Shown: positions 11,457 to 33,837 of the stretch, in pieces | How positions within the stretch are numbered: position 1 is the stretch's first letter | Layout: every line of letters starts with the position of its first letter | DNA from: an uncultured Candidatus Saccharibacteria bacterium | Lineage (GTDB): Bacteria > Patescibacteriota > Minisyncoccia > UBA6257 > 2-01-FULL-56-20 | NCBI GenBank assembly: GCA_964416665.1 | Contig: CAYQFA010000001.1 | Coordinates: forward strand, 40,082 to 104,081 | DNA length: 64,000 bases | Direction of reading: 5' to 3' | The notes under the pieces: model-generated | Database searches by the model: none | What the model saw: the letters and a program-made list of their open reading frames with translations, nothing else | What the model was told of the DNA's origin: nothing | Program-made: the position numbers and the translations under genes

Positions 11457-11878
11457 TCTCGGGGGTCGTTCTTACTCCACTCAAGGTCATCGCCAATCCG
11501 CTTGGGGACGTGTACCACGGCATGAAAAAATCCGATCCCGGTTTCGCCGGCTTTGGAGAGGCTTATTTTTCCACCGTTAATAAAGGTGATATCAAATCTT
11601 GGAAAAAACATACTTCGATGACCTTGAACCTCGTCGTACCCGTCGGGGCGATTCGTTTTGTCGTTCATGATGACAGGGAGGGGAGCGAGACCAAAGGTTT
11701 ATTCAACGATTTCACGCTTTCTCTGGATAATTATCAACGGCTCACGGTGCCACCGGGAGTGTGGATGGCCTTTCAGGGCGTCGGTGAGAAAAATCTTTTA
11801 TTGAACGTTGCCAATTTGGAACACGTGCCGGAGGAGGGCGCCCGCGTCGAGCTCGGAACATTTCCTTATCGCTGGTAA
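11444..11878 (+). CDS. RmlC-like cupin sugar-nucleotide 3,5-epimerase/isomerase
   Basis: 144-aa cupin. Has the RmlC-family layout (…FGEAYFSTV…VPPGVWMAFQ…). Overlaps rfbG. Confidence 0.55.
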   Translation: MDKLISGVVLTPLKVIANPLGDVYHGMKKSDPGFAGFGEAYFSTVNKGDIKSWKKHTSMTLNLVVPVGAIRFVVHDDREGSETKGLFNDFTLSLDNYQRLTVPPGVWMAFQGVGEKNLLLNVANLEHVPEEGARVELGTFPYRW

Positions 11879-11879
11879 T

Positions 11880-12872: not shown

Positions 12873-13781
12873 ATGGCTCGCAAAATAACCGTTCTTCTTA
12901 TGGGTGGGTTGGGCAATCAGATGTTCCAGTATGCGGCCGGTTTTAGCCTTGCAAAAAAGAACAACGCGCAGCTTTTCCTCGACACGACGCTTCTCAACGA
13001 CCGTTTTCCGCGGAAGGAATTTACCTTTCGCACACTGGATCTTGATATTTTTGGCATCGCGCCGAATTTTACGACGTTTTCGAAGGTCTCTCAAGCGATG
13101 CCGATTCCCGGCGTCTGGCTCGGCATAGATTATTCGTTGATAAAAGCGAGGGATGTTCTCGGGATCCAAAAAACGATAAAAGAGCGATCTCCCGTGTTCG
13201 ACCCCGATATTTTCAATATGGAAAGTAACGCTCTCTTGTTCGGATATTGGCAAAGCGAAAAATATTTTGAAAACGTAAAGGACGACCTTCGCGCCGTCTT
13301 CGATTTCAAGATCCCGCTTGCAGGCGTAGCAAAAGAAATCGCGGAAAAGATAAAAAGTACCAACTCAGTCGCACTTTTTGTGCGCCGCGGGGATTACGTT
13401 AACTTTGCGCGTGTGCGCGCGGAAATGGGCGATACCAACATAACGTACTATAAAAATGCCATTACTTACATCGCGGAACGCGTCAATAATCCCGCGTTCT
13501 TTATCTTTTCGAACGATATCGAGTGGTGCAGGGACAATTTGAAAATTCCTTTTCCTGCCATGTATATAGACAACGATCCGGCGAAGGTCGGCCCCAAGTT
13601 CTCTTATCAATTGCAGCACATGTCCCTTTGTAAGCACAATATCATCGCGAACAGCACGTTTCCCTGGTGGGGTGCGTGGTTGAATCCGAACCCACAGAAA
13701 ATAGTGATCGCGCCGCGCCAGTGGAACCTTCTTTTGCCGAGTGGGCAGGGTCCGGTACCTTCAGACTGGATAAAAATGTAG
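12873..13781 (+). CDS. glycosyltransferase family 11 (alpha-1,2-fucosyltransferase-like)
   Basis: GT11 motifs are present: N-terminal GGLGNQMFQYA and the HVRRGDY-type motif (LFVRRGDYVNF). The track start at 12867 is GTG; the first ATG is at 12873. Confidence 0.7.
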   Translation: MARKITVLLMGGLGNQMFQYAAGFSLAKKNNAQLFLDTTLLNDRFPRKEFTFRTLDLDIFGIAPNFTTFSKVSQAMPIPGVWLGIDYSLIKARDVLGIQKTIKERSPVFDPDIFNMESNALLFGYWQSEKYFENVKDDLRAVFDFKIPLAGVAKEIAEKIKSTNSVALFVRRGDYVNFARVRAEMGDTNITYYKNAITYIAERVNNPAFFIFSNDIEWCRDNLKIPFPAMYIDNDPAKVGPKFSYQLQHMSLCKHNIIANSTFPWWGAWLNPNPQKIVIAPRQWNLLLPSGQGPVPSDWIKM

Positions 13782-13786
13782 CATCC

Positions 13787-14815
13787 ATGAAGAAGTATTT
13801 TTATATTCTGAACCATCCTCTTTGTCCGACCCCGTATACCCACCGTTTTTTTGTCGAGAAATTCGCTTCGGGTTTCACCTACCATGGCTATGAGGTGAAG
13901 CTGATCTCGTCACCGCAGGAGATCGTGGGCCCGGGCGTGATGATGATCTACGATGCCGGATTTTATTTCTATTGGAACGATGGCATAAGGAATCTTCGTC
14001 GGGATTTTTTCATCATTGTCGACAGGGCTTTCAAAGCGCTGAAGTTAACGTGGTTCTCCGATCTCTGTTGGCATCTTCGCAAGAAGGCGATCATGCAATT
14101 TGCCCCGACGTTGAAAGAAAAGAATGTGGTATTGTTGGGATGGTTCTGGTTCTGGCAGAAGAAATTTTTCGACGACAACAGCATAAAGATCGTCTACACC
14201 GGTGAATACTTCTATCGAGAACCGGTTCACCGGCATCGTAAGGCGTGGTGGCATTTTTATACTGAGAATCGTGAGGGCCATGCGTTACCCATCCAGTTCG
14301 CCGCCGCGATGGATCCTCTCGTCGTAGGGTCGGATCCGGAAGCGAAAAGGGATATTATGGTATCATTCGTAGGGGAGCGAAAGTATAAGCCCGACTGGCA
14401 GGCCCTGTTCAATAAGCGGTCGGACTGTCGGATCGTGCCTACTCCTCCCTACATTCCCGAACTCGAGCGAATTGATATTTATAAGAGAAGTCTTGTTTCC
14501 TTAGGGCTTGAAGGATGTCCTCTTATAAGAGATGGGCTTGTGACGGAAAGGATTTTTGAGGCCTTGGCATACGGGGCCGTGTGCATTACCAACCATGATG
14601 AAGCCGTTGAAGCGACGAACGGCGCCGCGGTCTTTGCAAAGGATGCAAACGATGCGGAGGAGAAGGTGAAATATTTTTCCGCCGATAGGGCCGCAGCGAC
14701 GAGGCAGAGGGCGTTGGGATTTCGGTTTGTGAAAGAACAGGGGACATATGCTCATCAGGCAGGGAAATTCATTGCACTTATAGAAGGCGGTGTTCAGCAA
14801 AATTCTCATTTGTAA
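13787..14815 (+). CDS. putative glycosyltransferase (GT1/GT4-like C-terminal domain)
   Basis: ATG at 13787 (MKKYFYILNHP…) follows the upstream stop at 13781. The C-terminal region ERIFEALAYGAVCIT resembles the GT-B donor-binding fold. Confidence 0.4.
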   Translation: MKKYFYILNHPLCPTPYTHRFFVEKFASGFTYHGYEVKLISSPQEIVGPGVMMIYDAGFYFYWNDGIRNLRRDFFIIVDRAFKALKLTWFSDLCWHLRKKAIMQFAPTLKEKNVVLLGWFWFWQKKFFDDNSIKIVYTGEYFYREPVHRHRKAWWHFYTENREGHALPIQFAAAMDPLVVGSDPEAKRDIMVSFVGERKYKPDWQALFNKRSDCRIVPTPPYIPELERIDIYKRSLVSLGLEGCPLIRDGLVTERIFEALAYGAVCITNHDEAVEATNGAAVFAKDANDAEEKVKYFSADRAAATRQRALGFRFVKEQGTYAHQAGKFIALIEGGVQQNSHL

Positions 14816-14817
14816 CA

Positions 14818-15486
14818 ATGGACATAAGAAAAAAATTTTTAGGTGTCGGTAAGACCATCAGGGATGCTATTCTTTACGATAAGTATCAAAAGATACACTT
14901 ACAATTTCTCAAAGATTTTGGGGAGGACACCTTGCGTCTTGATTACGACTTTCTTACCGAAGATTCGGTGGTCTTTGATTTAGGTGGCTATCGCGGGCAG
15001 TCGACAAGCGATCTGTTCTCGAAATATGGGCCGAATATGTATGTTTTTGAGCCAGTCGAGGAGTATGCTGATTTTCTTCGCAAAAGATTTGCGAGGAGGA
15101 GCAACAAGATAAAAATATTCCAATTTGGACTTGGCAGTAGGACCGAAGAACAAACAATAAAGCTCGAGGCCGAAGGGTCAAGTACTTATAAATCGGCAGG
15201 CGACACTTCTATACATATCGAGGATTTTATGGAATTTGTAAAAAGGGAAAAAATTGAAAAGATCGACCTCCTGGAGATAAATATCGAAGGTGGAGAATAT
15301 GATGTGCTGCCATATTTAATAGAGACGGGATATATTAAAAACATACGTGCGTTACAGATACAATTTCACAACTTAATGAAAGACGCGCCGCAAAGGGTTG
15401 CCAAGATAAGGGAGGGGCTCGCAAAGACCCATGTTTGTGATTATAGCTACGATTTTAGCTGGGATGGTTGGACGTTGAAAAAATAA
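14818..15486 (+). CDS. FkbM-family SAM-dependent methyltransferase
   Basis: FDLGGYRGQST…VFEP…IDLLEINIEGGEYDVL, the FkbM-domain signature. Confidence 0.65.
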   Translation: MDIRKKFLGVGKTIRDAILYDKYQKIHLQFLKDFGEDTLRLDYDFLTEDSVVFDLGGYRGQSTSDLFSKYGPNMYVFEPVEEYADFLRKRFARRSNKIKIFQFGLGSRTEEQTIKLEAEGSSTYKSAGDTSIHIEDFMEFVKREKIEKIDLLEINIEGGEYDVLPYLIETGYIKNIRALQIQFHNLMKDAPQRVAKIREGLAKTHVCDYSYDFSWDGWTLKK

Positions 15487-15508
15487 AGATGGATAGAATT
15501 TCAACGCT

Positions 15509-16285
15509 ATGGATTATATATTGAAAAAGATAAGATTTTTATATAAAGAGCAGGGGATACTCGGCCCAACCCGCGCGCTTGGTCGGAAGATCTATTATTA
15601 TGGTATCCGAATTCCCGGACATTTTTTTTCCTACCTTTGGGCAGTGACGATAAGGAGGAAGAGATTTCCAACATTCGCCTTTGAGGGGAAGACCTACGAC
15701 TATCTTTGCAGCTATAAGAATTTTGCGTGGCTGTCGGAAAGGACAGCCGAGGTTCCCATCGCCGCCGGGTATATGCGGGACGCGCTCGCGAAGGGGAGTC
15801 GGGTTTTGGAGGTTGGCGATGTTCTCCGGCAGTATACCGGCCTGCGCGCGCAAGACATTGTCGATAAGTATGAGTATCGCAAAGGTATTATTAACGAGGA
15901 TATCGAAGAATTTGTGCCCAAGGAGCGCTATGATTTCATTGTGAGCGTTTCCACCATGGAACACGTGGGTTGGGATGCGCCGGATATTCGCGATCCCGAA
16001 AAATCCGCCCGTGTGATGCGCCTGTTCAAAGATAAATTCCTTACCCCCGGAGGAATGGGCGTCATCACGCTTCCCGTGGGTCAGAATCCCGAGCTTGATA
16101 AACGCCTGCGTGCCCACGCCCTTCCTTTCACAGAAACCTATTTTTTGAAGAGGATATCGAAAGAGAACGAATGGGTGGAAACCGACGAGGCTGACGCGTT
16201 CACGAAAAAATATCACTCGCCTTTTCCCAACGCGAACGCCATTGTTATTGGTATTATTCGGGCAGAAGGGAAAGACAAGGCATGA
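15509..16285 (+). CDS. class I SAM-dependent methyltransferase-like protein
   Basis: VLEVGDVL…FIVSVSTMEHVG resembles methyltransferase motifs I and post-I. Confidence 0.4.
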   Translation: MDYILKKIRFLYKEQGILGPTRALGRKIYYYGIRIPGHFFSYLWAVTIRRKRFPTFAFEGKTYDYLCSYKNFAWLSERTAEVPIAAGYMRDALAKGSRVLEVGDVLRQYTGLRAQDIVDKYEYRKGIINEDIEEFVPKERYDFIVSVSTMEHVGWDAPDIRDPEKSARVMRLFKDKFLTPGGMGVITLPVGQNPELDKRLRAHALPFTETYFLKRISKENEWVETDEADAFTKKYHSPFPNANAIVIGIIRAEGKDKA

Positions 16286-17352
16286 TAAGAATATTCTCCA
16301 TAAAACCATTTTCGGGGAGTCCCACCGATGGCATTGATAATGTGAATAGTGCCGTATTCAAGCGTCTTGATCTTGCGCGCATAGAATTCCACTCTGAAAT
16401 GGCAGACGGCATTTTGGAAGAGGGGAGCATAAAAAAGTTGGCGATGGGGCCACGCGGGGGGATAAGGAAGATCATTCATAAAATAATCTTGCTGCGGCGC
16501 ATGAATCCCGAATATTTATTTGGGATAGGGACCGTCTCCGACGTCGTCTTTATATTGGCGAAACCTCGCCGGACGAAATATGTGATCGCATGGCACACCG
16601 TCCTTTTTAAGAATAGCTCGTCATGGCGCGTTCGTACGCCCTGGTTCTTGAGGGTTTTCATTTTCAATCGCGCAGACTTTATTATCACCGTCTCTACGTT
16701 TTCGGCTGACGCAATACGACATTTTTTCCCACACAAGAAAGTCATTGTTATATTAAACGGCGTGGATGTAACTCTTTTCGACACCGTCCGGGGAGATCAG
16801 GGTTATTTGCACGAAAAATATCACATCGATTTTTCGAAGCCAGTTATGGTATTCGTGGGCGCCATGAGCGAGAGAAAGCGGCCGGATATCTTCTTCAAGC
16901 TCTCGGAGGACTTTCCGGGGGCAAACTTCGTTGCAGTCGGAAGGGATCCCGTGGGTTGGGATTTTCTCCGCTCTCCGCGCTCCGCTCATTTTCAGTGGAT
17001 AGAGTCGATGCCCCGCGAAGATATCGCCCGTCTTTTTGCGGCGAGTAGAATATTTGTTTTTCCCAGCCTGAACGATGCTTCGGCAGCGGTTATTTTGGAG
17101 GCGATGGCATCCGGGTGCGTCCCCATCGTTTCGAGAAGCGGGGGGAGCCCGGAATTCTTTAAGGAGGGTGTTAGTGGATTTTCCATTCCTGTAGACGACG
17201 AGGAAATAGCGGCCTTCTCTCAGAGAATAAAGCTACTTCTCGGCGATGCCGTTTTCGACCCAGCGCGATTGATGGCGCGAAAAGAGGCGGAACAGCACTC
17301 CCTGGACGCTGTTGCCAAGCAATACGAAAAAATTTTTGAAGAAAATGTCTAA
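16282..17352 (+). CDS. glycosyltransferase family 4 (GT-B, Glycos_transf_1)
   Basis: C-terminal EAMASGCVPIVSRSGGSPEF and an EX7E-like motif. ATGA overlap with the upstream gene. Confidence 0.75.
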   Translation: MIRIFSIKPFSGSPTDGIDNVNSAVFKRLDLARIEFHSEMADGILEEGSIKKLAMGPRGGIRKIIHKIILLRRMNPEYLFGIGTVSDVVFILAKPRRTKYVIAWHTVLFKNSSSWRVRTPWFLRVFIFNRADFIITVSTFSADAIRHFFPHKKVIVILNGVDVTLFDTVRGDQGYLHEKYHIDFSKPVMVFVGAMSERKRPDIFFKLSEDFPGANFVAVGRDPVGWDFLRSPRSAHFQWIESMPREDIARLFAASRIFVFPSLNDASAAVILEAMASGCVPIVSRSGGSPEFFKEGVSGFSIPVDDEEIAAFSQRIKLLLGDAVFDPARLMARKEAEQHSLDAVAKQYEKIFEENV

Positions 17353-18220
17353 TCAAGACACCGAGCGGCAGTGTTTAGCCTTAGTCTCGATCATTATCCC
17401 CTCGTACAACTCCGCGGCATATGTCCGGGAGGCGGTGGATTCGGCTCTTGGGCAGACGTACACGAAAAAGGAGGTGATCGTCGTTGACGACGGCTCGACG
17501 GACGATATTGCCGAGATCCTCCAACCCTATGTTCGTGAGCAAAAAATAATTTATATCCATCAGGAGAACAAGGGATTGCCGGCGGCACGGAATACGGGGA
17601 TAAAGGCTTCGCATGGCGAGTTCATCGCGCTTCTCGATTCGGACGATATTTTCTTGCCGAACAAGATCGAGCGGCAGGTCGCGTATCTTCGGCAGCATCC
17701 TGATTGCGGCGTGTGCTATTGCGACATGTACCAGTTTTACGAAGAGGAGCCGGAAAGGCTGCTAAAATTGGACTATACCTATTACTCGGGTGACGATGTT
17801 TTTCCGAACCTCCTCCGCATGAATTTCATAGGTCCACTTACGGTGGTTTTGCGCAAGAGCGAGATTGATCGGGTCGGTCTTTTTGATGAGACATATCGTC
17901 GTTCCGAGGATTGGGAATATTGGGTACGACTGGCGCAACATGGCGTGCGGTTCGAACATCTTCCCGAGATGCTTGCGAAATATCGTATGCGCAGGATGAG
18001 CGCATCCCACGATTGGAAATCCGAGATCCAGAGGAAGGCGACGACCTTGCAGATCATCGAGGCTGCAAATGCGGCAATGACGTCGGAGGAGCGGCGGAGG
18101 TACGGCATGACGGCGATACTCCGCATGCATCGTGGTAAACTATGGTATGCGTACGCGGGAACGTATTTCCCGCCGTTGCGATGGTTGCTCACATGGAGAC
18201 AAAAAAACCGCCTCAAGTAA
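17345..18220 (+). CDS. glycosyltransferase family 2
   Basis: SIIIPSYNSAAYVREAVDSALGQTY…VIVVDDGSTDD…LDSDD. The ATG at 17345 overlaps the upstream stop. Confidence 0.75.
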   Translation: MSNQDTERQCLALVSIIIPSYNSAAYVREAVDSALGQTYTKKEVIVVDDGSTDDIAEILQPYVREQKIIYIHQENKGLPAARNTGIKASHGEFIALLDSDDIFLPNKIERQVAYLRQHPDCGVCYCDMYQFYEEEPERLLKLDYTYYSGDDVFPNLLRMNFIGPLTVVLRKSEIDRVGLFDETYRRSEDWEYWVRLAQHGVRFEHLPEMLAKYRMRRMSASHDWKSEIQRKATTLQIIEAANAAMTSEERRRYGMTAILRMHRGKLWYAYAGTYFPPLRWLLTWRQKNRLK

Positions 18221-19029
18221 GTATAATATTGCCGACCTACAATCGTTCCGTGCAGTTGCGCCGTGCGATTGGGAGTGTCCTTGAACAAAGTTTTACCGAC
18301 TGGGAGCTCATCGTGGTTGATGACGCTTCGACTGATGATACCCCGGCGGTAGTGCGTGCGATCAGCGCGCACGATTCGCGGGTGGTGTATGTTCGCAACG
18401 AGAAGAACAACTATCCCGATATCGCGCGAACGCTCAATCGCGGCATCGAATACGCGCGCGGCTCGCTGATCGCGCGCATTGATGACGATGATTATTGGAT
18501 AGATGATGACAAGCTCGAAAAGCAGGTCTCATTTTTTGAGCGTCACTCCGACTGCGCGGTGGTCGGGAGCGGCATGGTGCTGGTCGATCCCAACGGACAC
18601 GAGATCGCGCGGTATTTAAAAAAAGAGACCGATCAGGAGATCAGAAAGACGGCGTTATTCGCCAACCCGTTCTCGCACACCACCGTCATGTTTCGCGCCG
18701 ATCTCGCGCGCAAGGTCGGGGGGTATGGTGATTGGCGCTACGCGGAGGATTGGGACCTCTGGCTTAAAATGGGCTGCGTCGGCACACTCTATAATTTTCC
18801 GGAATATTTTGCGGCCTATACGGTGAGCGGCAAGAACAAGTCGTTCGTCTATCTTCGTGCGCAGACGAAAATGAACTTCAAATTCCTTGCGCTTCACAAG
18901 AACGAATATCCCGGCTATACGAAGGCCTACGTGATCAACCTGCTGCAATATATCTACTCCTTCCTTCCCGTCGCACTGCGACGACGCTTTCAGTCGGTGC
19001 TGTCGAATCTAAAACGGCGTCTGTTCTAA
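18193..19029 (+). CDS. glycosyltransferase family 2
   Basis: SIILPTYNRSVQLRRAIGSVLEQSF…LIVVDDASTDDT…IDDDD. The ATG at 18193 overlaps the upstream gene. Confidence 0.75.
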   Translation: METKKPPQVSIILPTYNRSVQLRRAIGSVLEQSFTDWELIVVDDASTDDTPAVVRAISAHDSRVVYVRNEKNNYPDIARTLNRGIEYARGSLIARIDDDDYWIDDDKLEKQVSFFERHSDCAVVGSGMVLVDPNGHEIARYLKKETDQEIRKTALFANPFSHTTVMFRADLARKVGGYGDWRYAEDWDLWLKMGCVGTLYNFPEYFAAYTVSGKNKSFVYLRAQTKMNFKFLALHKNEYPGYTKAYVINLLQYIYSFLPVALRRRFQSVLSNLKRRLF

Positions 19030-19087
19030 CGGTCGCCTGCGCAGATGCGCAGTTGACGTTTGGGCCATATTCTAGGAGAATTAAGAC

Positions 19088-20104
19088 ATGATTGTTTCAC
19101 GTGCGCCGATGCGCGTCAGTTTTGTTGGGGGAGGCACCGACCTTCCTGATTTTTATAAACGCTATCCCGGGCGGGTTATTTCGACGAGCATCGACAAATT
19201 CGTCCATGTGGTGCTGAACCGCACGCCGCTCATCGACAAGATCTCTGCCCGTTATAATATCGCGGAAACCGTTGACTATCCGAGCGAACTTAAGCATACG
19301 AGGATCAAGGCGGCCCTGCTCGATCTTGAAATCACAAAGGGCCTTGAGATCGGTTCTTTCGCAACACTTCCGCAGAGCACCGGCATGGGTTCATCGTCCA
19401 GTTTTTCTGTGGCGCTTATCAAGGCGCTTTATGCCTATCAGGGAAAAAGGATAGGAAAGCGCGAGGTTGCCGAGGCGGCGTCGCGCTTGGAGATCGAATT
19501 GGTAGGCGAGCCGATCGGGAAACAGGACCAGTACGCCGCCGCATTCGGCGGATTCAACATCTTTCAATTCAACGCCGACGGAACGGTGGACGTGAAGCCG
19601 ATCCTTCTTGACTACAAGAAGTCGTTTGATTTCCAGAACCATATTCTGGTGTTCTTCACGGGTGTCACGCGTTCGGCCTCAAGTGTTCTCACCGAGCAAA
19701 AGAGCAATATTGATAAAAAATTCGAGACGCTCAAAGAGATGTCGGATTCCGTTCCGGAGTTTGAGGCGCGTCTTTTGAAGGGCGACATAAAGGGCCTGGG
19801 AGGCATGTTGCATGATGGGTGGGTCAAGAAAAAAACACTGTCGTCCAACGTTTCGAATTCCGTCATCGATGGCCTTTATGAGGCCGGTATGGCGAACGGC
19901 GCGTGGGGCGGAAAGGTGCTTGGGGCAGGCGGCGGAGGCTGCGTCATGTTCGTTGTTCCCCCCGAGAAACGCGCAGCTGTTCATTCCGAGCTTATAAAAA
20001 AGGCCGCCGGGCTCGATCTGGCGGGTGCGAAGGAGATACCGATCGGCTTCATCCAATCGGGCGTCGAGATTGTGCACAACAGCGACAAAAATATCTCACT
20101 CTAA
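19088..20104 (+). CDS. hddA: D-glycero-alpha-D-manno-heptose 7-phosphate kinase (GHMP kinase)
   Basis: N-terminus MIVSRAPMRVSFVGGGTDLPDFY plus the GHMP ATP-binding loop PQSTGMGSSSSFSVA. Confidence 0.75.
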   Translation: MIVSRAPMRVSFVGGGTDLPDFYKRYPGRVISTSIDKFVHVVLNRTPLIDKISARYNIAETVDYPSELKHTRIKAALLDLEITKGLEIGSFATLPQSTGMGSSSSFSVALIKALYAYQGKRIGKREVAEAASRLEIELVGEPIGKQDQYAAAFGGFNIFQFNADGTVDVKPILLDYKKSFDFQNHILVFFTGVTRSASSVLTEQKSNIDKKFETLKEMSDSVPEFEARLLKGDIKGLGGMLHDGWVKKKTLSSNVSNSVIDGLYEAGMANGAWGGKVLGAGGGGCVMFVVPPEKRAAVHSELIKKAAGLDLAGAKEIPIGFIQSGVEIVHNSDKNISL

Positions 20105-20111
20105 AAAAACC

Positions 20112-20717
20112 ATGGAAGACTTCATTAAAGATTTCGCGCGGAAGGTTGAGGATTGCCTGGAGAATCTTCCCGCCGAAGAGATCGCGAAAGCGATCAATAT
20201 CATTCAGGCTTGCTACGAGCGCGATGGGAGGATATATATCTTCGGCAACGGCGGCTCGCTCGCCATCGCCACCCACTGGGTGTCCGATATCAACAAGACC
20301 ATTTTCAGCCATCATCTTGACCATCCGGGTCGGCGATTCCAGGCAATCCGCCTGCCCTCCACAGAATCGGAGATCACCGCATGGGCGAATGATGTCGGTT
20401 ATGACATGGTCTTCGCCGGTCCGCTTAAGAACTATCTTCAGGAAACTGACGTCATCATTGCTATTTCGAGTTCGGGGAATTCCGAAAACATCGTAAAGGC
20501 GGCGCAGTTCGCCAAGGAGCAGAATGTTCCGATCATCGGCCTTTCGGGTTTCGACGGCGGCAAACTGAACGAGCTTTCCGACGCAAAGATATTGGTGAAA
20601 ACGGAAAAAGGGGAATATGAAGTGGTGGAAAGCGCGCACGGGACGATCATGCATCTCATCGTAAAATATTTCAAAAATTATTTCGATCATCTTGTCGAAC
20701 ACCGTGCCGCGAAGTAA
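20112..20717 (+). CDS. gmhA: phosphoheptose isomerase (SIS domain)
   Basis: RIYIFGNGGSLAIATHW…AISSSGNSENIV SIS motifs. The ATG at 20112 sits 8 nt after the hddA stop. Confidence 0.8.
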   Translation: MEDFIKDFARKVEDCLENLPAEEIAKAINIIQACYERDGRIYIFGNGGSLAIATHWVSDINKTIFSHHLDHPGRRFQAIRLPSTESEITAWANDVGYDMVFAGPLKNYLQETDVIIAISSSGNSENIVKAAQFAKEQNVPIIGLSGFDGGKLNELSDAKILVKTEKGEYEVVESAHGTIMHLIVKYFKNYFDHLVEHRAAK

Positions 20718-21282
20718 CCTCAAAAAAACGAGAGCTGTTTTTCTCGATCGCGACGGCGTGATCAACCGTGAGGTCGGCATTTTGAGCTCGGTACAACAGC
20801 TCACGATCCTTCCGAAGGCCGCCGCTGCGATAGCGGCCATCAACAAGCTGGGATTCCTTGTGGTGGTCGCCACCAATCAGCCCGTCATCGCGCGCGGACT
20901 GATCTCAGAGCCCGAGCTCGATGCGATCCACGCGGTCATGGTCAGCCGTCTTGCGCGTCACGGCGCGAAGATCGATGCCATTTATTATTGTCCGCACCAT
21001 CCCGATGCGAACCTCAAAAAATATCGCGTGCGGTGCCGGTGCCGTAAGCCCAACATCGGTCTCATCATGCGGGCGGTAAAGGAGCACGGCATCGCGCTCG
21101 ATAAAAGCTTTCTCATCGGCGACCGGACGGTGGACATCGTGGCGGGCAAGAAAGCCCGCGTTCGTACCATTCTCGTGAGAACCGGTTTCGGCGGGAAGGA
21201 TGGGAAGTTCGATGTCGCTCCTGATTTCACTGCAAAAGATCTTGGTGCTGCCGTAAGAATAATAAAAAAATATGCAAAATAA
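20692..21282 (+). CDS. gmhB: D,D-heptose 1,7-bisphosphate phosphatase (HAD family)
   Basis: HAD motif I FLDRDGVIN plus the CxHx…CxC zinc site (YYCPHHP…CRCRKP) typical of GmhB. Confidence 0.75.
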   Translation: MSNTVPRSNLKKTRAVFLDRDGVINREVGILSSVQQLTILPKAAAAIAAINKLGFLVVVATNQPVIARGLISEPELDAIHAVMVSRLARHGAKIDAIYYCPHHPDANLKKYRVRCRCRKPNIGLIMRAVKEHGIALDKSFLIGDRTVDIVAGKKARVRTILVRTGFGGKDGKFDVAPDFTAKDLGAAVRIIKKYAK

Positions 21283-22015
21283 GATCACGCAGGCCGTCAT
21301 TTTGGCAGCCGGTCTCGGCACGCGTCTGCGGCCGCTTACCGACACCGTGCCGAAGGTGATGGTCCCTATCGCGCCGGGCAAACCGCTTCTTGAGCATATC
21401 GTCGAGCTTCTGCGTGGCCAGGGCATCACGGACTTTATTGTCAATGTCCATTATCTGCCGGAAGTGATCACTTCGTATTTTGGCGACGGAACAAAATGGG
21501 GCGTGCGCATTCGCTACAGTGATGAGCGCGATCGACCGCTTGAGACCGCAGGTGCGATGAAAAAAATGGAGTCGATGCTGGACGATAATTTCCTTTTTCT
21601 CTACGGCGATACGCTTCATTTTCTCGATTTCGAACCGCTCATTGAGGAGCATATGGAACACGGCGCCATTGGAACGCTTGTTCTCAAGAGATCCGATTAT
21701 CCGAAGGACGGCGATATCGGCGAGTTCGATGTAGCGACCAAAAAGATCATCCGATGGCACACGCGCCCGCACGACATCACCGTGCTCGGTCCGAACATGC
21801 TGGTGAATGCCGGTCTCTACGCATTTTCAAAAAAAATAGCCGATTATATTCCTTCCGGCGTCCCCGTGAAGCTTGATGGCGAGGTCATTCCCAAGGCGAT
21901 GGCGGCCGGCGAGCCGCTCTACGCCTATCCTACCGACGAGATCATCTGGGATATCGGCAGACCGGAAAAATATGAAAAGGCGAAAGAGTATTACGCGAGC
22001 CGGATGAAAAACTAA
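21272..22015 (+). CDS. hddC: D-glycero-alpha-D-manno-heptose 1-phosphate guanylyltransferase
   Basis: Nucleotidyltransferase N-terminus AVILAAGLGTRLRPLT. Sits in the hddA-gmhA-gmhB context. Confidence 0.65.
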   Translation: MQNKITQAVILAAGLGTRLRPLTDTVPKVMVPIAPGKPLLEHIVELLRGQGITDFIVNVHYLPEVITSYFGDGTKWGVRIRYSDERDRPLETAGAMKKMESMLDDNFLFLYGDTLHFLDFEPLIEEHMEHGAIGTLVLKRSDYPKDGDIGEFDVATKKIIRWHTRPHDITVLGPNMLVNAGLYAFSKKIADYIPSGVPVKLDGEVIPKAMAAGEPLYAYPTDEIIWDIGRPEKYEKAKEYYASRMKN

Positions 22016-22062
22016 AACCCGCACCATGGTTGTGGCGCGGGGCTGTCTTTCTTTGCCGCTTT
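22016..22062. terminator. bidirectional intrinsic terminator between convergent hddC and the P-loop kinase gene
   Basis: Hairpin CCCGC-A-CCA[TGGTTG]TGG-C-GCGGG, flanked by an A-run on the 5' side and a T-rich tract on the 3' side. Confidence 0.45.
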
Positions 22063-22066
22063 TCGG

Positions 22067-22633
22067 CTAGGAAAGGATGTATTTGATTGCCTCATCAACG
22101 CAGTTTTCGACCGTGTTCGGTGGGGAGGTGTCGAGCGTGAGATGTTCAACGGGCGGTATCTCGAAGCGGGCTTTCACTTCGTGGTAGCGTTCAAGCGAAT
22201 TGACACTTGACCAGCAGTTTACGCCGAATTGTCGGCTCGCGAGACGGCGAGCGATCTCCTCGTCGCTGTCGTTCTCCGGCTTGCACCAGATCACTCGTAG
22301 GTTCGGAGAGAGCCTGGCGGCAATGAGTATCTCCAGGAAGTTGTCCCAGTAGCTTGTTCGGGAGAATGTTGCCGTCACAATGAGCCTCCGGCCCATCGCC
22401 ATATTTGCGGTGATGGAGGAATAGAAAAGGTCGTAAGCGCCTTTCATTTCCCTGCGATCCTTTTCCATCTCCTGTTGTGAGACGGGGTGAGGGTTGGGCG
22501 TGCCAAAATTCAATACTCGCACGGCGTCGATATCCAACCAATGGATGTTGAGCTGCTTTGCGATCGCCGCCGCGAGAGTGTCTTTACCTGCGACAGCCCA
22601 CCCACAAAGTACGATCAATTCGCCGTCGTTCAT
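22067..22633 (-). CDS. P-loop NTPase / small-molecule kinase (AAA_33-like; weak adenylylsulfate-kinase-like motifs)
   Basis: Start MNDGELIVLCGWAVAGKDTL (Walker A), followed by LDIDAVRVLNF, which resembles the APS-kinase LDGDNVRHGLN. The ATG overlaps the upstream stop in an ATGA arrangement. Confidence 0.45.
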   Translation of the reverse strand: MNDGELIVLCGWAVAGKDTLAAAIAKQLNIHWLDIDAVRVLNFGTPNPHPVSQQEMEKDRREMKGAYDLFYSSITANMAMGRRLIVTATFSRTSYWDNFLEILIAARLSPNLRVIWCKPENDSDEEIARRLASRQFGVNCWSSVNSLERYHEVKARFEIPPVEHLTLDTSPPNTVENCVDEAIKYILS

Positions 22634-23445
22634 ATTACACTTCCTTTCAGGAGTTTCAGGATAGCCCTTTGGTCGGTTCCGTTTCCCGAAGCAACGATGT
22701 TCCGGGAATTTTCGAAGGTCGGCCAGTCGCCATTCCAGTCGGTGACGATCCCTCCCGCTTCTTGAGCAAAGATGATCGCCGGAAGGTTGTCCCACGGGGC
22801 GTTGTCCACCGACACCAGGGCACCTACATGACCTTGCGCCAGGGCGGTTGCCGCGACACAACTCGAAAAGCTTGGTCGTACAGTAAGAGTTTTTCCAAGC
22901 TCGGATACCTGCGGCGATTTGAAGAACTTCTTCGATGAGCCCTCAAGCATCACGGTCAGCCGTTCGAGTTGGCCTTCGCGCGCCACGTGGAGTTGATGAT
23001 ACAATTGGTGTTCCTCGCACCATTGCCAGGCTCCTCGTCCGTTCTCCGCGTAGAAAAACCCATTTCCGCGGAGCGTTTGGTCGACGGGCCTGAAGATTGC
23101 GGCATAGAGCACGTCATCTCCTTGCCTTCTCGAGATAGCGGCGCCATAAGAGTTGAGTCCCATGCGTCGGTTTCCCGTTCCATCGAGTCCGTCGAGATAC
23201 CATTCCGGGCGTTCGCCGTGGTTCTCATCCTTGATGTTGTCTTCCTCACCGACGGTGCTGTCGGCAGGGAAATAGTTGTGAACTACTTCACGCAGTTTTG
23301 CGAGCGCCAAGTGGTCAAGGCTTCCGACGGGAGTTCCGTCGCCCTTGATCTTGTCGCCTAACTGCTCATGTGCTGTGCCGATGTAATTCGGGAGAAGGCT
23401 GAGGAACAGCCCTCGCAGCGCCGTAGTGAATGCTTCATAGCCCAT
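22630..23445 (-). CDS. inositol-monophosphatase / CysQ-family phosphatase
   Basis: IMPase-family motifs WYLDGLDGT and WDNLPAIIFAQEAGGIVTD. The ATG at 23445 (MGYEAF…) is preceded by a strong SD, GAAGGAGG, 8 nt upstream. The longer track ORF starting at 23517 lacks an SD. Confidence 0.6.
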   Translation of the reverse strand: MGYEAFTTALRGLFLSLLPNYIGTAHEQLGDKIKGDGTPVGSLDHLALAKLREVVHNYFPADSTVGEEDNIKDENHGERPEWYLDGLDGTGNRRMGLNSYGAAISRRQGDDVLYAAIFRPVDQTLRGNGFFYAENGRGAWQWCEEHQLYHQLHVAREGQLERLTVMLEGSSKKFFKSPQVSELGKTLTVRPSFSSCVAATALAQGHVGALVSVDNAPWDNLPAIIFAQEAGGIVTDWNGDWPTFENSRNIVASGNGTDQRAILKLLKGSVI

Positions 23446-23533
23446 CGCGGGCCTCCTTCTTTCTTTTCCGAAATCTCTCAGACCAAAATTTGTGAAGGTC
23501 TGGGCATATAATAACACATATCTAGCACTAAAG

Positions 23534-23706
23534 TCAACTCACACGCCATCCCGCAGCTTGGTAGAATTTCTTATGTTTTAGTTGGTATGGGCTGCTCTCA
23601 GGAATCGATTTAATGACCTCTTCCAGAAGAGGCTCTTTGAGCATCTTCAAGGCGGCAAAATATACCAGTGCGCCGAGCGCAATGTATGGGTATATAATGG
23701 GTGCTT
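23534..23706 (-). pseudogene. 3'-terminal remnant of a Wzx-type flippase gene (about 57 codons, no start codon)
   Basis: The in-frame peptide …IYPYIALGALVYFAALKMLKEPLLEEVIKSIP…* matches the C-terminus of the intact wzx (…VIYFLILKILKEPLLEEVFSLIP…). Over the core, 26 of 29 nt are identical (23615-23643 vs 24630-24658). Confidence 0.5.
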
Positions 23707-23773
23707 CTATTGAAGGGATAGTTCGGTTATAATGAGGTCAGGAGCTATGAGATGGTGACCCCTTGAATCAGGC

Positions 23774-23796
23774 CAGCGGTCCGCTGCCTCTTTTTT
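23774..23796 (+). terminator. intrinsic terminator / attenuator-like hairpin immediately upstream of the FkbM gene
   Basis: CAGCG-GTC-CGCTG followed by CCTCTTTTTT. It is preceded by a TATAAT box (23728-23733) and two 3-4 codon mini-ORFs. Confidence 0.35.
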
Positions 23797-23817
23797 ATGG
23801 GGTTCTTATAAAAATCA

Positions 23818-24585
23818 ATGGAAAAGATTTTCAAGCAATTTCAAGGGTTGAGACAATACGGGTTGAAATACACCCCATTTATTCTTGCTCGCCTCGGCCT
23901 TAAAAGATCCGGCGAGATCACGGTAAAATTTTTCTGGGGTAAGACAGTGAAGCTGCCGTTCAACGCCGTAACGACGGAGCTGTATTATTTGCAAGCCGTG
24001 CCGGAGCCCAGGCTGATAGATTTCCTATCGAAGACATTAAAGGAAGGTGATGTCTTTTATGATATCGGAGCGAATTATGGCTTTTATTCTTTCCTCGCTA
24101 GTCATTTGCGCGCGAAGGTATTCCTCTTTGAACCTATAGCGGAAAATTGTAAGGCTATCAGAAAAAATATCTCTCCTGCGGAAGATATTTCCGTGAATGA
24201 GGTGGCCGTTGGGGAGGTTGCGAATGAACAGATCCCGTTTTATGAGGCGACGATACGAAATTCACAGAGTAGCGCCGACTCAAAGGCGGTCGAGGGAGTC
24301 AAAACCAGAAAGGTTTTGGCCAAAACGGAGTCCATTGATAACTTTGTGCTTACCCATCCAAAACCCACAGTTCTTAAAATAGATGTTGAAGGCTTTGAAG
24401 AGAAAGTCATAAAAGGGGGATCCACTTTTTTCCGCGATAACTTCCCCGTGATTATCATGGAGGCGTGGGGTGGAGAGAAGGGAGAACAATTTGCGCCGCC
24501 AGCGATAACATATCTCAATTCGCTCGGTTACAAAATTCGAGAGAATCTCGATGGCAACAATGTGTTCAGAAAAGTGAGCGCGTAA
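23818..24585 (+). CDS. FkbM-family SAM-dependent methyltransferase (second copy)
   Basis: FYDIGANYGFYS…LFEP…LKIDVEGFEE FkbM signature. Own -10-like TATAAA box 5 nt before the ATG. Confidence 0.65.
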   Translation: MEKIFKQFQGLRQYGLKYTPFILARLGLKRSGEITVKFFWGKTVKLPFNAVTTELYYLQAVPEPRLIDFLSKTLKEGDVFYDIGANYGFYSFLASHLRAKVFLFEPIAENCKAIRKNISPAEDISVNEVAVGEVANEQIPFYEATIRNSQSSADSKAVEGVKTRKVLAKTESIDNFVLTHPKPTVLKIDVEGFEEKVIKGGSTFFRDNFPVIIMEAWGGEKGEQFAPPAITYLNSLGYKIRENLDGNNVFRKVSA

Positions 24586-24591
24586 ATCGCT

Positions 24592-26067
24592 CTATCCAAC
24601 CAATGGGTTCTTCCGTGGGATCAAACTGAAAACCTCTTCCAAAAGAGGCTCTTTAAGGATTTTTAATATTAGGAAATAGATGACGCAGCTAATGGATATA
24701 TTGACGATGACGTTGATGTGGAGAAAAAGGAAAATCGTTGTGAAAATCCCCATAACAACGCTCGCGAGAGCTATGTTTTTAAGCCGTGTTATTACGGTGA
24801 ATCTATTTATTTTTTTCATAGCCCACCACAGGTAGCCGTTATTTACGGCCTGGGCGATGAGCGTGGCCACCGCCGAACCGGCGATGCCGAAGAACGGAAT
24901 CAGGGCAAGATCGAGGCCGACGTTCACTATGCCGCCGAGCGTGGAAGAAACAATGAGGCTCTTTTGGTGGTCATAGGCGAAGAGCGCGTTGATGATGATG
25001 GATGCGGGAAAGTCGAAGATGAGCGTCGCCGCGAGGATTTTGAAAGCGAGGCCTCCCGCTGCGTAGGGCGCGCCGAATACGAAGCCCATGATTTGCGTAC
25101 CAAGTACGACCCCGCCGATAGACAGCGGGAAGGAAGCAAGGAATACCATGCCGAGCGTGCGTTCGAAAGTGCTGCGAAATCGCTCGTTGTCGTGCTTCGC
25201 AAGGCGTGAAATGAGCGGGAGGGTGGCGAATTGTATGATGCTTGGTACAAGATAGAACATCTGGATGATGCGGATGGCTGCGGAATAGACGCCGACATCT
25301 GAGGCCGATCGCATCCAGCTGATGATGAGGATATCGCTGTTTGTAAAGAGCAGGCCGAGCGCGCCACTGATTGCAAATGGCCATGCTGCCCTAAGGATCG
25401 GCATGATACGCTCCGGCTCGAAACCCGAGAATATTTTTTTGAAGTAACCACGCAAGGCTATCACTGAAGCCGCAGTGCCGACGGCGTCGCCGGCAACATA
25501 ACCCCAACTGAATGCCTGTACGTTCGCTGCATAGGCGAGGAAGATGAAGCCGAACACGACGATGCCGAGGTTGGTGAGAAGGAACAACCCCGCCTCCCAC
25601 TCCATCTTTTCCATGGCGCGGAAGAGCGACAAAAAGAATTCACGCATAGTATCGAAAGCGAGCACAAGAGCGACAATAGGAATCAGAACCTTGGCTCCCG
25701 GGAGTGTGGTGAAAAGAGGGGCGACAAACAGGATGCCCATGACGCCGACGAGTAAAAGCACGATCTTTATCGCGAACATCGTCCCGAACATCGCGCGGCG
25801 TTCCTTTTCATCAACCTTCCCCGCATCGCGGATAAGGATGCCATTGATGCCAGGATCCATAAGAAGTGTGAGGAACCCGGCGAGTGTGATGACGTAGGAA
25901 AAGACGCCGTAGCCGTCGGTGCCCAAGATACGCGCGGCATAGATGATGATGACCGCCTTAATGAGTCGCCCGCCGAAATTCGACACCGAGAGCCAGAACG
26001 TATTTTTTACCACGGTCTGTTTGGCGCTTGTGTTCTTAAAAAGGAAGGCTTTTATTTTTTTGAACAT
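24592..26067 (-). CDS. wzx: oligosaccharide flippase (Wzx, MOP superfamily)
   Basis: About 12-14 TM helices with polysaccharide-biosynthesis-protein family character. ATG at 26067 (MFKKIKAFLF…); the track ORF starts at a GTG at 26130. Confidence 0.7.
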   Translation of the reverse strand: MFKKIKAFLFKNTSAKQTVVKNTFWLSVSNFGGRLIKAVIIIYAARILGTDGYGVFSYVITLAGFLTLLMDPGINGILIRDAGKVDEKERRAMFGTMFAIKIVLLLVGVMGILFVAPLFTTLPGAKVLIPIVALVLAFDTMREFFLSLFRAMEKMEWEAGLFLLTNLGIVVFGFIFLAYAANVQAFSWGYVAGDAVGTAASVIALRGYFKKIFSGFEPERIMPILRAAWPFAISGALGLLFTNSDILIISWMRSASDVGVYSAAIRIIQMFYLVPSIIQFATLPLISRLAKHDNERFRSTFERTLGMVFLASFPLSIGGVVLGTQIMGFVFGAPYAAGGLAFKILAATLIFDFPASIIINALFAYDHQKSLIVSSTLGGIVNVGLDLALIPFFGIAGSAVATLIAQAVNNGYLWWAMKKINRFTVITRLKNIALASVVMGIFTTIFLFLHINVIVNISISCVIYFLILKILKEPLLEEVFSLIPRKNPLVG

Positions 26068-26123
26068 TGAGGTTATACTTGACTCATACAGGATAGCCGA
26101 AAAAACGGCTTCCGTAAATTGAT

Positions 26124-26627
26124 ATGACACCCAAAAAGAAATTGGCGAGGCGCGTTAAAAAAGATCCCAAAAAAGTCGTGGTTGCGGTCTCCGGCGGATT
26201 CGATCCGATCCACATCGGCCATGTGCGGATGTTCGAGCGGGCCAGATCGCTCGGCGATGAGCTGGTCGTGATTTTGAATAATGACAATTGGCTCAAAAAG
26301 AAAAAAGGGTATGTGTTCATGCCGGAGCGGGAGCGGAAGGAGGTGATCGAAGGGCTCCGCGCGGTGGACCGTGTGGTCGTCACCAAGCATAAGCCGGACG
26401 ACAACGATGTAAGTGTGTGCCGTGAACTTCGCGCGATCAAGCCCGACGTCTTCGCTAATGGCGGCGACAGGAAATTCGATAATACCCCCGAGGTCGCCGT
26501 CTGTGATGCCATTGGATGCGCGATGGTGTTCAATGTCGGCAAGGGCGGGAAGATACAATCCAGTTCATGGCTGCTGAAGAACCACGCCAATCACATTGCC
26601 GGAAAGAGCGGAAAGAAAGCGCAGTGA
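26124..26627 (+). CDS. cytidylyl/adenylyl-transferase-like nucleotidyltransferase (RfaE domain II / TagD-like HxGH fold)
   Basis: VVAVSGGFDPIHIGHVRMFERARSLGDELVVILNND…ERKEVIEGLRAVDRVV matches the (H/T)xGH cytidylyltransferase core of the HldE C-terminal domain. Confidence 0.55.
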   Translation: MTPKKKLARRVKKDPKKVVVAVSGGFDPIHIGHVRMFERARSLGDELVVILNNDNWLKKKKGYVFMPERERKEVIEGLRAVDRVVVTKHKPDDNDVSVCRELRAIKPDVFANGGDRKFDNTPEVAVCDAIGCAMVFNVGKGGKIQSSSWLLKNHANHIAGKSGKKAQ

Positions 26628-26636
26628 TAGAACGGG

Positions 26637-27563
26637 TCAGACTTTAATCGTCTCAAGCGTTTTCCGGATACCTTCCCTCAATTTTATCGTCGGCGTCCAC
26701 CCAAGAACTTTTTTCGCCTTGCCTGCCTTGATGGATATCTGATAGACCTCTCCTTTTCGATACGCCGCAAAGACGGGTTTTTCGGGATAGCCGGTGCTTG
26801 CGGCAATCTCATCGAATATCATCCTATCGGTGACCGTCTTGCCCCAGCCGAGGTTGACGATATCATTACGGCCCTTCTTGAGCGCAAGGACGTTCGCGTG
26901 CACCACATCGTGGACGAAGGTGTAATCGCGTGCTTTCGTACCATCGCCAAAAATGGTGGGCCGTTTTCCGGATTTCATGAGGCCGCCAAAGATGGCGACC
27001 ACGCCGGCCTCGCCTTTCGGATTTTGGCGTGGGCCATAGACGTTCGGATAACGGAAAATGAGGTAGGTAAAGCCGTACTGGCGGGCGTAGAAGGTGATCA
27101 CTTCCTCGCCGAGCAGTTTGGAAAGTCCATAGGGGGAAAGCGGGGCTGCGGTGGTGGATTCGTCGGCGGGGATCTTTTTGGGTTCGCCATAGATCGCGCC
27201 GCCCGTGGAAGAGAATATGAATTTCCTGTTCTTTCCCTTCCCGTGATGTCCGAATGCGAGCAGTACGTTCGTTGTACCGAGCACATTCACCTGGAGGGTC
27301 GGTATGGGGTCGCGCAGCGATTTGACCACTTCCGCGATTGCCGCATGGTGGTTCACGACCTCAGGCCTTTCCTTTTTGAATATCCTTTCCATCGCCGCCG
27401 CATCGCGGATATCGGCTTTGTAGAACGTCGCTTTCGGGTTGACGTTCTTTCTGAACCCGGTGGAAAGGTCGTCAATGACCGCCACGCGATGACCGGCTTT
27501 TATATAAGCGTCAACGATGTGCGACGCGATGAACCCCGCTCCGCCCGTAACGATGATTTTCAT
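26637..27563 (-). CDS. UDP-glucose 4-epimerase family NAD-dependent epimerase
   Basis: MKIIVTGGAGFIASHIVD…YGLSKLLGE (YxxxK) SDR epimerase motifs. Confidence 0.7.
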   Translation of the reverse strand: MKIIVTGGAGFIASHIVDAYIKAGHRVAVIDDLSTGFRKNVNPKATFYKADIRDAAAMERIFKKERPEVVNHHAAIAEVVKSLRDPIPTLQVNVLGTTNVLLAFGHHGKGKNRKFIFSSTGGAIYGEPKKIPADESTTAAPLSPYGLSKLLGEEVITFYARQYGFTYLIFRYPNVYGPRQNPKGEAGVVAIFGGLMKSGKRPTIFGDGTKARDYTFVHDVVHANVLALKKGRNDIVNLGWGKTVTDRMIFDEIAASTGYPEKPVFAAYRKGEVYQISIKAGKAKKVLGWTPTIKLREGIRKTLETIKV

Positions 27564-27614
27564 AGTGCCTTTATTATAGCAAAAAGCCGGATCATGTGAA
27601 TCCAGAGCCTCCTG

Positions 27615-33683: not shown

Positions 33684-33752
33684 TAATCCTTCTTCAGTTA
33701 GCCAGAATCAAGATTAATCCCCAGAGGGAAAGCCAAATAGCAAGGGTACGCA

Positions 33753-33791
33753 CTTTTGCGGCCTGCTGCGAAGACGCAACGGCCGCAAAAG
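33753..33791 (+). repeat. conserved-loop hairpin family member A
   Basis: Stem CTTTTGCGGCC/GGCCGCAAAAG (11 bp); 17-nt loop TGCTGCGAAGACGCAAC. Confidence 0.6.
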
Positions 33792-33837
33792 CATGTGCCC
33801 TTGCTATTTAGCCCAACTTGATGTATCATAATCCATA

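Follow-up and report, generated by a model that had tools for sequence, protein, structure and literature searches.

The window, a 64-kb stretch of contig CAYQFA010000001.1 from an uncultured member of the Patescibacteria, contains four co-directional genes that we predict to form a heptose-activation cassette. All are on the forward strand. The first encodes a 338 amino acid HddA-like GHMP kinase (19088..20104; Pfam GHMP_kinases_N/C) and the second a 201 amino acid GmhA-like SIS isomerase (20112..20717; SIS_2/SIS). These are followed by a GmhB-like HAD-IIIA phosphatase (20692..21282; Hydrolase_like/HAD_2), which has 196 amino acids from a TTG at 20692 or 192 from a GTG at 20704, and a single-domain sugar-1-phosphate nucleotidyltransferase (NTase) of 247 amino acids (21272..22015; NTP_transferase).

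The genes are tightly packed. A 7-nucleotide spacer, read from the sequence, separates the kinase stop (20104) from the isomerase ATG (20112), the phosphatase start overlaps the isomerase end (stop 20717) by 14-26 nucleotides depending on which of its two starts is used, and the NTase ATG (21272) overlaps the phosphatase stop (21282) by 11 nucleotides. The two start/stop overlaps suggest that cassette genes are co-translated. The open reading frames, Pfam domains and junctions bear out the tight four-gene arrangement described in the initial annotation, which had also implied a longer isomerase beginning at GTG 20025. That start is unlikely; two independent public gene calls, on two contigs, both use ATG 20112.

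A 119.5-kb JGI metagenome contig, an ENA contig and a Logan contig all carry identical copies of these genes. Named homologues come from Minisyncoccia, Parcubacteria, Paceibacteria, Liptonbacteria and other Patescibacteria metagenome-assembled genomes. The GC content is 0.534 over 18-22 kb and 0.46-0.56 elsewhere in the window; horizontal acquisition of the cassette was rejected because there is no compositional break.

Starting from sedoheptulose 7-phosphate, the cassette probably makes a heptose that is activated by a nucleotide and destined for a surface glycan; in this prediction we infer the substrates, an alpha anomer, which nucleotide is used and which glycan receives the sugar. The GmhA-type isomerase is predicted to convert sedoheptulose 7-phosphate to the 7-phosphate of D-glycero-D-manno-heptose, and the HddA-type GHMP kinase to phosphorylate O1, which would give the alpha-1,7-bisphosphate. 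The GmhB-type HAD-IIIA phosphatase would act as a heptose-1,7-bisphosphate 7-phosphatase, and the NTase would then couple heptose 1-phosphate with a nucleoside triphosphate. The product may be used by the glycosyltransferases of the surrounding Wzx/Wzy-type locus and become part of the surface glycan of this Minisyncoccia/Paceibacteria-type cell.

The kinase has the clearest affiliation. Its best NCBIfam model is HddA (167.4 bits), with fucokinase next at 88 bits, and its closest structures are the three solved heptose-7-phosphate kinases (WcbL 4usk, 6e-43; 3k85, 1e-40; 4n3o, 3e-37). Fucokinase is also the next structural relative, at only 5e-16. Mutation of WcbL residues R13, D22, S118-120, Q162 and D163 abolishes function (PMC4691232), and all of these are kept in a phmmer alignment to 4usk, where the window kinase has R9, D18, a GMGSSS motif and a KQDQY motif at the mutagenesis positions. 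Kinase homologues form more than 100 protein clusters in the candidate phyla radiation (CPR) at 65-93% identity, and the JGI name for them is heptose-7-phosphate kinase.

The isomerase matches the gmhA model TIGR00441 at 99 bits. Its strong PDB matches are all phosphoheptose isomerases (GmhA, 9e-22 to 1e-15), followed by DiaA. We take the canonical GmhA active-site and metal residues to be His, Glu, Gln and His (Glu65 and His180 in E. coli numbering). The His residues are retained in the window protein, the Glu is replaced by Asp (HWVSD) and the Gln by Glu (VVESAH). The motifs GNGGSLA(L/I)ATHWV(S/A)D(F/I)NKT and (V/I)VE(S/G)xH are conserved in a Patescibacteria GmhA-like clade made up of the window protein and its orthologues (loci L003-L064), and essentially all of the Patescibacteria orthologues carry both substitutions. 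Because they are conserved across the CPR clade, the substitutions appear to mark a selected variant and not a decaying gene.

The phosphatase falls slightly under the cut-offs of two GmhB models (PRK08942, 158.4 bits vs 178; TIGR00213, 127.8 vs 149.6) and is above those for HAD-IIIA (99.7 vs 44.6) and for a histidinol-phosphatase domain model (129.7 vs 84.15). In the PDB it matches GmhB structures or related HAD proteins (7.5e-31 to 2.3e-20), and HisB comes last (1e-12). Its motifs include FLDRDG (DxDG), TNQ and the zinc-loop pair CPHH...CRCRKP; of these, FLDRDG, CPHH and CRCRKP line up with E. coli GmhB (2gmw). Scores are 95 of 250 bits for the alpha-type model NF050049 and 158 of 178 for the beta-type PRK08942, although such hidden Markov model scores do not predict anomer preference.

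Several observations weigh against a heptose role. None of the four proteins reaches its NCBIfam equivalog cut-off, with 167 bits against 600 for HddA (NF049969), 99 against 209 for GmhA (TIGR00441), 158 against 178 for GmhB (PRK08942) and 88 against 300 for HddC (NF049965). The substrate of the isomerase is not guaranteed, given the changes at its catalytic and metal site, and HddC is a more distant match of the NTase than are a UDP-glucose pyrophosphorylase and GDP-mannose pyrophosphorylases. Several related loci (L003, L005, L007 and L009) have no GmhB gene within 8 kb. A heptose family is nevertheless the best match, by a wide margin, for three of the four cassette proteins.

The cassette could instead act on a hexose, taking fructose 6-phosphate through mannose 6-phosphate, mannose-1,6-bisphosphate and mannose 1-phosphate to NDP-mannose and bypassing phosphomannomutase, but we know of no such hexose route, which counts against it. 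The best NCBIfam model of the NTase, a mannose-1-phosphate guanylyltransferase, and the altered isomerase active site are compatible with this idea, and HddC enzymes take mannose 1-phosphate in assays (PMC6981941) and WcbL binds mannose in crystals (PMC4691232). Against it, the best families and structures of the three upstream enzymes are heptose-specific by wide margins, and the orthology-based JGI names agree with heptose. We consider action on a hexose improbable. The initial annotation had proposed that a different sugar would be indicated by an NTase clustering with mannose-1-phosphate guanylyltransferases and a kinase clustering with unrelated GHMP kinases; the NTase is indeed nearer to the former models, whereas the kinase groups with heptokinases.

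Gene neighborhoods support a role in heptose activation. A kinase scan of GTDB species genomes, with neighbors mapped by tblastn, gave 36 loci, of which 33 are Patescibacteria-like, at 50-71% identity. Of 32 loci that could be evaluated, 30 have the SIS gene directly 3′ of the kinase; a GmhB-like gene is found no more than 8 kb from the kinase in 26 loci and an RmlA-fold NTase in about 29. The exact order kinase, isomerase, phosphatase, NTase is found again in nine loci (L004, L008, L010, L011, L026, L041, L042, L049 and L064). Overall, the kinase-isomerase pair shows synteny with the other two genes in about 50 Patescibacteria loci, and the cassette is present in hundreds of CPR genomes, with the NTase sometimes fused to GmhB.

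In the reverse direction, searching metagenome contigs with the NTase yielded 62 loci. Where the NTase is at least 41% identical, 11 of 12 loci have adjoining kinase, isomerase or phosphatase genes, the exception being a 1.6-kb contig. Below about 39% identity, most loci are without heptose genes alongside. This NTase clade is therefore tied specifically to heptose genes.

The strongest single item for the predicted heptose role is the fusion of NTase and GmhB genes. Three fusion proteins of 413-424 amino acids (P0062, P0079 and P0091) belong to the same subclade as the window NTase, to which they are 52-54% identical, and share its loop YSDE..LL(D/E)TAGA. Their C-terminal half is a GmhB-type phosphatase with DRDG...CPH...CxCRKP. 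Eight other CPR loci and one Clostridia locus also have a GmhB fusion, with an NTase of a second lineage.

Other Patescibacteria have a second cassette type consisting of a kinase, an isomerase, a short-chain dehydrogenase/reductase (SDR) gene and an NTase. The NTase and GmhB are one open reading frame of 399-419 amino acids in L012, L014, L016, L025, L027 and L029, and the NTase is a separate gene in L015, L019, L028 and L037. Its L6 loop (DETGTR or SGIRI) is like that of the CTP enzyme RfbF and unlike HddC, which hints at another nucleotide and a modified heptose. In L003, a 492 amino acid open reading frame (10615-12093) follows the kinase-isomerase pair and contains two tandem NTase domains that are 44% and 43% identical to the window NTase; there is no GmhB gene within 8 kb.

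The NTase is the least typical member of the cassette. Its NCBIfam models rank as mannose-1-phosphate guanylyltransferase (man1P_GTase, 133 bits), Arch_glmU (123), MurU (112), AglF (102) and, fifth, HddC (88); three of the best four are UTP enzymes. Both phmmer and Foldseek place it nearest to tlr0611 (8x7s), a cyanobacterial UDP-glucose pyrophosphorylase with 36% identity, then to GDP-mannose pyrophosphorylases (GMPPs), MurU and finally HddC (27-28% identity). The HddC structure 5xhw is eighth among the PDB matches (4.9e-17).

We set aside structural comparison as a test of the nucleotide. The AlphaFold2 model has a pLDDT of 94, and Foldseek places tlr0611, GMPP, MurU and HddC in a narrow band of TM-scores (0.77-0.87 on query length, with the single-domain MurU and HddC at 0.84-0.88 on target length), values too close to discriminate. 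The similarity ranking and a tree-based argument were dropped as well. The Clostridia NTase-GmhB fusion has a GMPP/HddC-like ExxPLGTAG, yet gives the identical PDB order (tlr0611, GMPP, MurU, HddC), and therefore overall similarity does not discriminate nucleotide specificity.

As far as sequence can indicate, the nucleotide-binding loops are more informative. HddC has Ser53 in loop L4 and binds guanine N1/N2 through Glu80 in the L6 motif EXXPLGTGGA, and in MurU Asn52 of L4 (VVINHAWLG) holds UTP (PMC6981941). MurU has YSPEGEPLETGGG as its L6 and its Glu79 makes no base contact; GMPPs have AV(S/A)Y in L4 and EEEPLGTAG in L6. The window NTase has FIVNVHYLP and YSDERDRPLETAGA. It lacks the HddC motif, having E85-RDR-PLETAGA with one residue more and Glu and Ala in place of two Gly, and its Asn58 sits at the position of HddC Ser53. 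Both Asn58 and Glu85 are invariant in 35 NTase homologues. The NTase is not an HddC orthologue, and its loops look more like those of UTP enzymes.

The initial annotation had called the cassette a complete GDP-heptose pathway. The enzyme set of the alpha (HddA-type) route, with its isomerase, anomeric GHMP kinase, 7-phosphatase and NTase in a polysaccharide locus, holds up, and the labels "GDP" and "HddC" are too specific (the NTase scores 88 of 300 bits and its loops differ from those of GTP enzymes). That heptose 1-phosphate is the sugar substrate of the NTase is well supported by the genomic context. By analogy, we tentatively favor GDP as the nucleotide. The base-binding loops make UDP a possible choice, nearly as likely as GDP, and other or promiscuous nucleotide use accounts for the remainder. 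To our knowledge no alpha-UDP-heptose is known in nature, which counts against UDP.

A related possibility, which we rate as less likely but a real alternative, is that the NTase is a MurU/CugP-like pyrimidine-nucleotide enzyme that was recruited into the cassette and replaced HddC. Asn58 aligns with the UTP-holding Asn52 of MurU and with the L4 Asn of tlr0611 (MVNVSHL), where HddC has Ser53 (PMC6981941) and the GTP enzymes GMPPB, VTC1 and 7whr have Ala. Loop L6 of the NTase, IRYSDERDRPLETAGAM, is akin to IRYSPEGEPLETGGGI of MurU and unlike the HddC motif, and the top structural and sequence match is a UTP enzyme. However, the HddC Glu that contacts guanine N1/N2 is retained in the NTase as E85, other members of the NTase clade, such as that in L026, have an HddC/GMPP-like ExEPLGTAGG, and the comparison covers only about three UTP and five GTP reference enzymes. 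The HddC S53N mutant still prefers GTP, so the Asn alone does not set specificity (PMC6981941). In its broadest form, recruitment would mean that Patescibacteria have a clade-specific MurU/CugP-like NTase making an undescribed nucleotide-heptose as a widespread surface-glycan building block; this, too, we regard as possible but unlikely.

Compared with known systems, the cassette has the same four enzyme classes, logic and clustering in a surface-polysaccharide locus as the HddA/HddC GDP-heptose pathway. The kinase is a clear WcbL/HddA relative with its catalytic residues kept, the phosphatase has the GmhB zinc loop, and the NTase is single-domain, with no beta-helix, and coupled to GmhB-like and HddA-like genes. 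It differs from that pathway in that all of its proteins are under the equivalog cut-offs, Asp and Glu stand at the Glu and Gln positions of the isomerase, and the NTase, without EXXPLGTGGA and with Asn for Ser53, is nearest to tlr0611, GMPP and MurU. The host also differs, belonging to the CPR bacteria, which are generally described as being without an outer membrane.

The best sequence and fold match of the NTase, the CugP-type tlr0611, has a TM-score of 0.86 and shares the L4 Asn. MurU, an N-acetylmuramate alpha-1-phosphate uridylyltransferase (4y7t and 8hhd), is 30-31% identical, with TM-scores of 0.87-0.88 by target, and resembles the NTase in the L4 Asn, single-domain length and L6 PLET(A/G)G. 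The partners of the NTase are heptose enzymes, not AmgK or glucose metabolism, and therefore its sugar substrate must differ from those of MurU and tlr0611; its use of UTP would be a prediction from the loops. The catalytic domains of GMPPs (ManC/GMPPB/VTC1; 7d72 and 7x8j) are 29-31% identical to the NTase, which retains the Glu of the ExxPLG region and has a mannose-1-phosphate guanylyltransferase as its best model. Unlike them, it lacks a C-terminal left-handed beta-helix domain (247 vs about 360 amino acids), has Asn for Ala in L4, and is apparently translationally coupled to a GmhB phosphatase, to which it is fused in relatives.

With the ADP-heptose (Hld) route, the cassette has the GmhA and GmhB steps in common. 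The kinase is GHMP-type and not PfkB-type, and the NTase has an RmlA fold and not a cytidylyltransferase fold. A superficial likeness comes from two nearby genes that resemble HldC and HldD, a small cytidylyltransferase-like protein (CTP_transf_like, 26124-26627, forward strand) and an SDR epimerase (26637-27563, reverse strand). The initial annotation correctly noted the former as RfaE-domain-II-like and suggested a second (ADP/CDP) activation route. Its best NCBIfam model is indeed rfaE_dom_II (TIGR02199), at 79.3 bits against a cut-off of 181.5. The PDB neighbors are ethanolamine-phosphate (ECT), glycerol-3-phosphate (TagD) and choline-phosphate cytidylyltransferases and the uncharacterized 3glv. 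The protein is extremely conserved in Patescibacteria, where its homologues fall into more than 120 clusters (67-87% identity); they offer no informative fusions and have database names such as "HldE" (at the level of KEGG orthology, in JGI) and "adenylyl/cytidylyltransferase family".

The small protein is always found within a block that also contains a Wzx-type flippase (24592-26067, reverse strand), the GalE-like SDR epimerase and a polyprenyl-phosphate glycosylphosphotransferase (27615-28952, reverse strand; TIGR03025, 369 bits vs 295). This companion block (24592-28952) lies beside the cassette in the same order and orientation in L003, L005, L006, L008, L042, L049 and L052, and is the likely user of the activated heptose. 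Across these seven loci the SDR is 64-81% and the small transferase 64-78% identical, both more conserved than the cassette NTase.

A real heptose nucleotidyltransferase in the small protein, with the SDR as a 6-epimerase, would make an ADP-heptose-like route. Such a reading can draw on the rfaE_dom_II match, the JGI name, a match of the SDR to heptose_epim at 114 bits, the placement of both genes near the cassette in the seven loci and the ADP-heptose module reported, at KEGG-module level, in Paceibacteria (PMC9166423). That report is the only mention of heptose in CPR bacteria that we found in the literature, where there was also nothing for the 8x7s/tlr0611 structure. Both scores are far under their cut-offs, though (79 of 181.5 and 114 of 274.6 bits), GalE is the better match for the SDR, and the PDB neighbors of the small protein are the cytidylyltransferases listed above. 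Only 4 of 36 genome loci were found to have the small protein at 8 kb or less from the kinase, against about 29 for the RmlA-fold NTase, which is often fused to GmhB. The cassette kinase is of the GHMP/HddA type, and no PfkB (HldA-type) kinase is on record among the called genes of the 64-kb window. We consider it highly improbable that the two proteins act in this way. Given its score, its block context and the lack of any PfkB kinase on record in the window, a second activation route is unsupported, and the gene content fits the alpha (HddA-type) route rather than the ADP-heptose module.

The heptose-activation cassette is thus best described as a lineage-specific variant of the known nucleotide-heptose pathway, widespread in Patescibacteria and already partly auto-annotated. 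CPR/Patescibacteria are mostly uncultivated episymbionts whose cell-surface chemistry is almost unknown. Among the glycan genes of the Paceibacteria-type genomes sampled, those of the cassette and companion block rank with the more conserved, the kinase being 65-75% identical in more than 100 protein clusters, and this points to a heptose-containing surface polymer being common in these cells. A polymer of this kind could bear on host attachment, on phage recognition, and on labeling or enrichment strategies. Should the NTase use UTP, the product would be a new nucleotide sugar and the enzyme a new case of non-orthologous displacement in a pathway that has been well studied; with GTP, it would be an ordinary divergent member of the GDP-heptose pathway.

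The cassette is probably one transcription unit, starting at a promoter-like site (19053-19081) with a probably leaderless mRNA and ending at a hairpin (22018-22041). The upstream site is sigma-70-like on the forward strand (TTGACG, 17 nucleotides, GAGAAT; a 9/12 match), and its -10 element ends 6 nucleotides before the kinase ATG at 19088. Within 60 nucleotides upstream of the kinase, 22 of 38 loci have a promoter-like site of at least 9/12, compared with 6.7% of 60-mers drawn at random from those loci; with the threshold raised to 10/12, the rates are 21% and 0.7%. The -10 element ends 6-12 nucleotides from the kinase ATG in 16 of the 22 sites. This suggests that the cassette has its own promoter and a leaderless or very short-leader transcript, and the recurrence of a -10 element near the kinase start suggests leaderless operon transcripts across Patescibacteria. 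The downstream GC-rich hairpin has a 9-bp stem with seven GC pairs and lies directly past the NTase stop (22015), between the cassette and a convergent AAA_33 gene that shares it. It has a T-run on the reverse strand and a T-rich tract on the forward strand too, and is a probable bidirectional terminator, where the cassette transcript would end.

A 7-bp palindrome (CTGCGCA-GA-TGCGCAG, 19037..19052) abuts the -35 hexamer; an equal match count arises in 17 of 100 shuffles. It is possibly an operator, a hairpin ending the upstream gene, or chance. A palindrome search of the window, exact or with three mismatches, found only the palindrome itself. The initial annotation had seen in this spacer (19030-19062) a relic of a conserved hairpin loop, and suggested that the cassette was joined to the glycosyltransferase block at a former element site. 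The hairpin family in question has four long near-perfect copies in the window (at 33743, 37092, 57054 and 57503, within 33735-33805, 37075-37131, 57046-57116 and 57495-57565), with stems that vary from copy to copy and are as long as about 20-25 bp, and one conserved loop, CCTGCTG(C/T)G-N4-C(G/A)CAACGG. The spacer matches this loop at 11 of 12 bases over 12 nucleotides and has no flanking stem arms, and in a Smith-Waterman scan with the loop it ranks 73rd of 12,792 windows, below unrelated sites. The similarity is therefore not above chance and we rejected the relic. L042, the closest long relative (76-90% amino acid identity), has the same junction of a GT2 glycosyltransferase and the kinase, with a promoter (TTGAAA, 17 nucleotides, TATAAT) and no palindrome. 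With a promoter-like spacer, a shared junction and no GC break, the proposed joining is not borne out either.

Copies of the hairpin family follow genes or tRNAs, for example PNPase and tRNA-Gly. They have the look of a terminator or repeat element that is specific to the lineage and whose apical loop is conserved. An Rfam scan of the window matched only tRNAs, with no family for the hairpins.

The Wzx/Wzy-type polysaccharide locus around the cassette spans about 7.3-30.6 kb. It encodes a Wzy_C protein (7333-8826), glycosyltransferases (12873-19029 and 28965-30559) that include GT11, GT1, GT4 and GT2 enzymes, two FkbM methyltransferases, and the flippase, SDR epimerase and initiating glycosylphosphotransferase described above. 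The region 9565-12860 encodes RfbF (glucose-1-phosphate cytidylyltransferase, 319.8 bits vs 300), RfbG (CDP-glucose 4,6-dehydratase, 472.6 vs 278), a 144 amino acid protein without a family match and an SDR, and is followed by a GT11 (fucosyltransferase-family) gene. The predicted RfbF/RfbG route implies a CDP-6-deoxyhexose.

The gene order in L042 is GT4, GT2, GT2, kinase, isomerase, phosphatase and NTase, leading straight into the flippase block. Relative to L042, the window has an extra 2.5 kb (22067-24585) that encodes an AAA_33 P-loop kinase (22067-22633, reverse strand), an inositol-monophosphatase-family protein (22630-23445, reverse strand) and an FkbM methyltransferase (23818-24585, forward strand). 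Homologues of the AAA_33 gene adjoin the cassette in L011, L033 and L046, once with an inositol-monophosphatase-like gene. One speculative reading of this segment is as an accessory module, such as a bisphosphatase that provides sedoheptulose 7-phosphate or a means of phosphorylating the sugar or glycan. Far from the glycan locus, a third NTP_transferase-domain gene (50139-50945) encodes a 268 amino acid protein beside a DeoR-type regulator.

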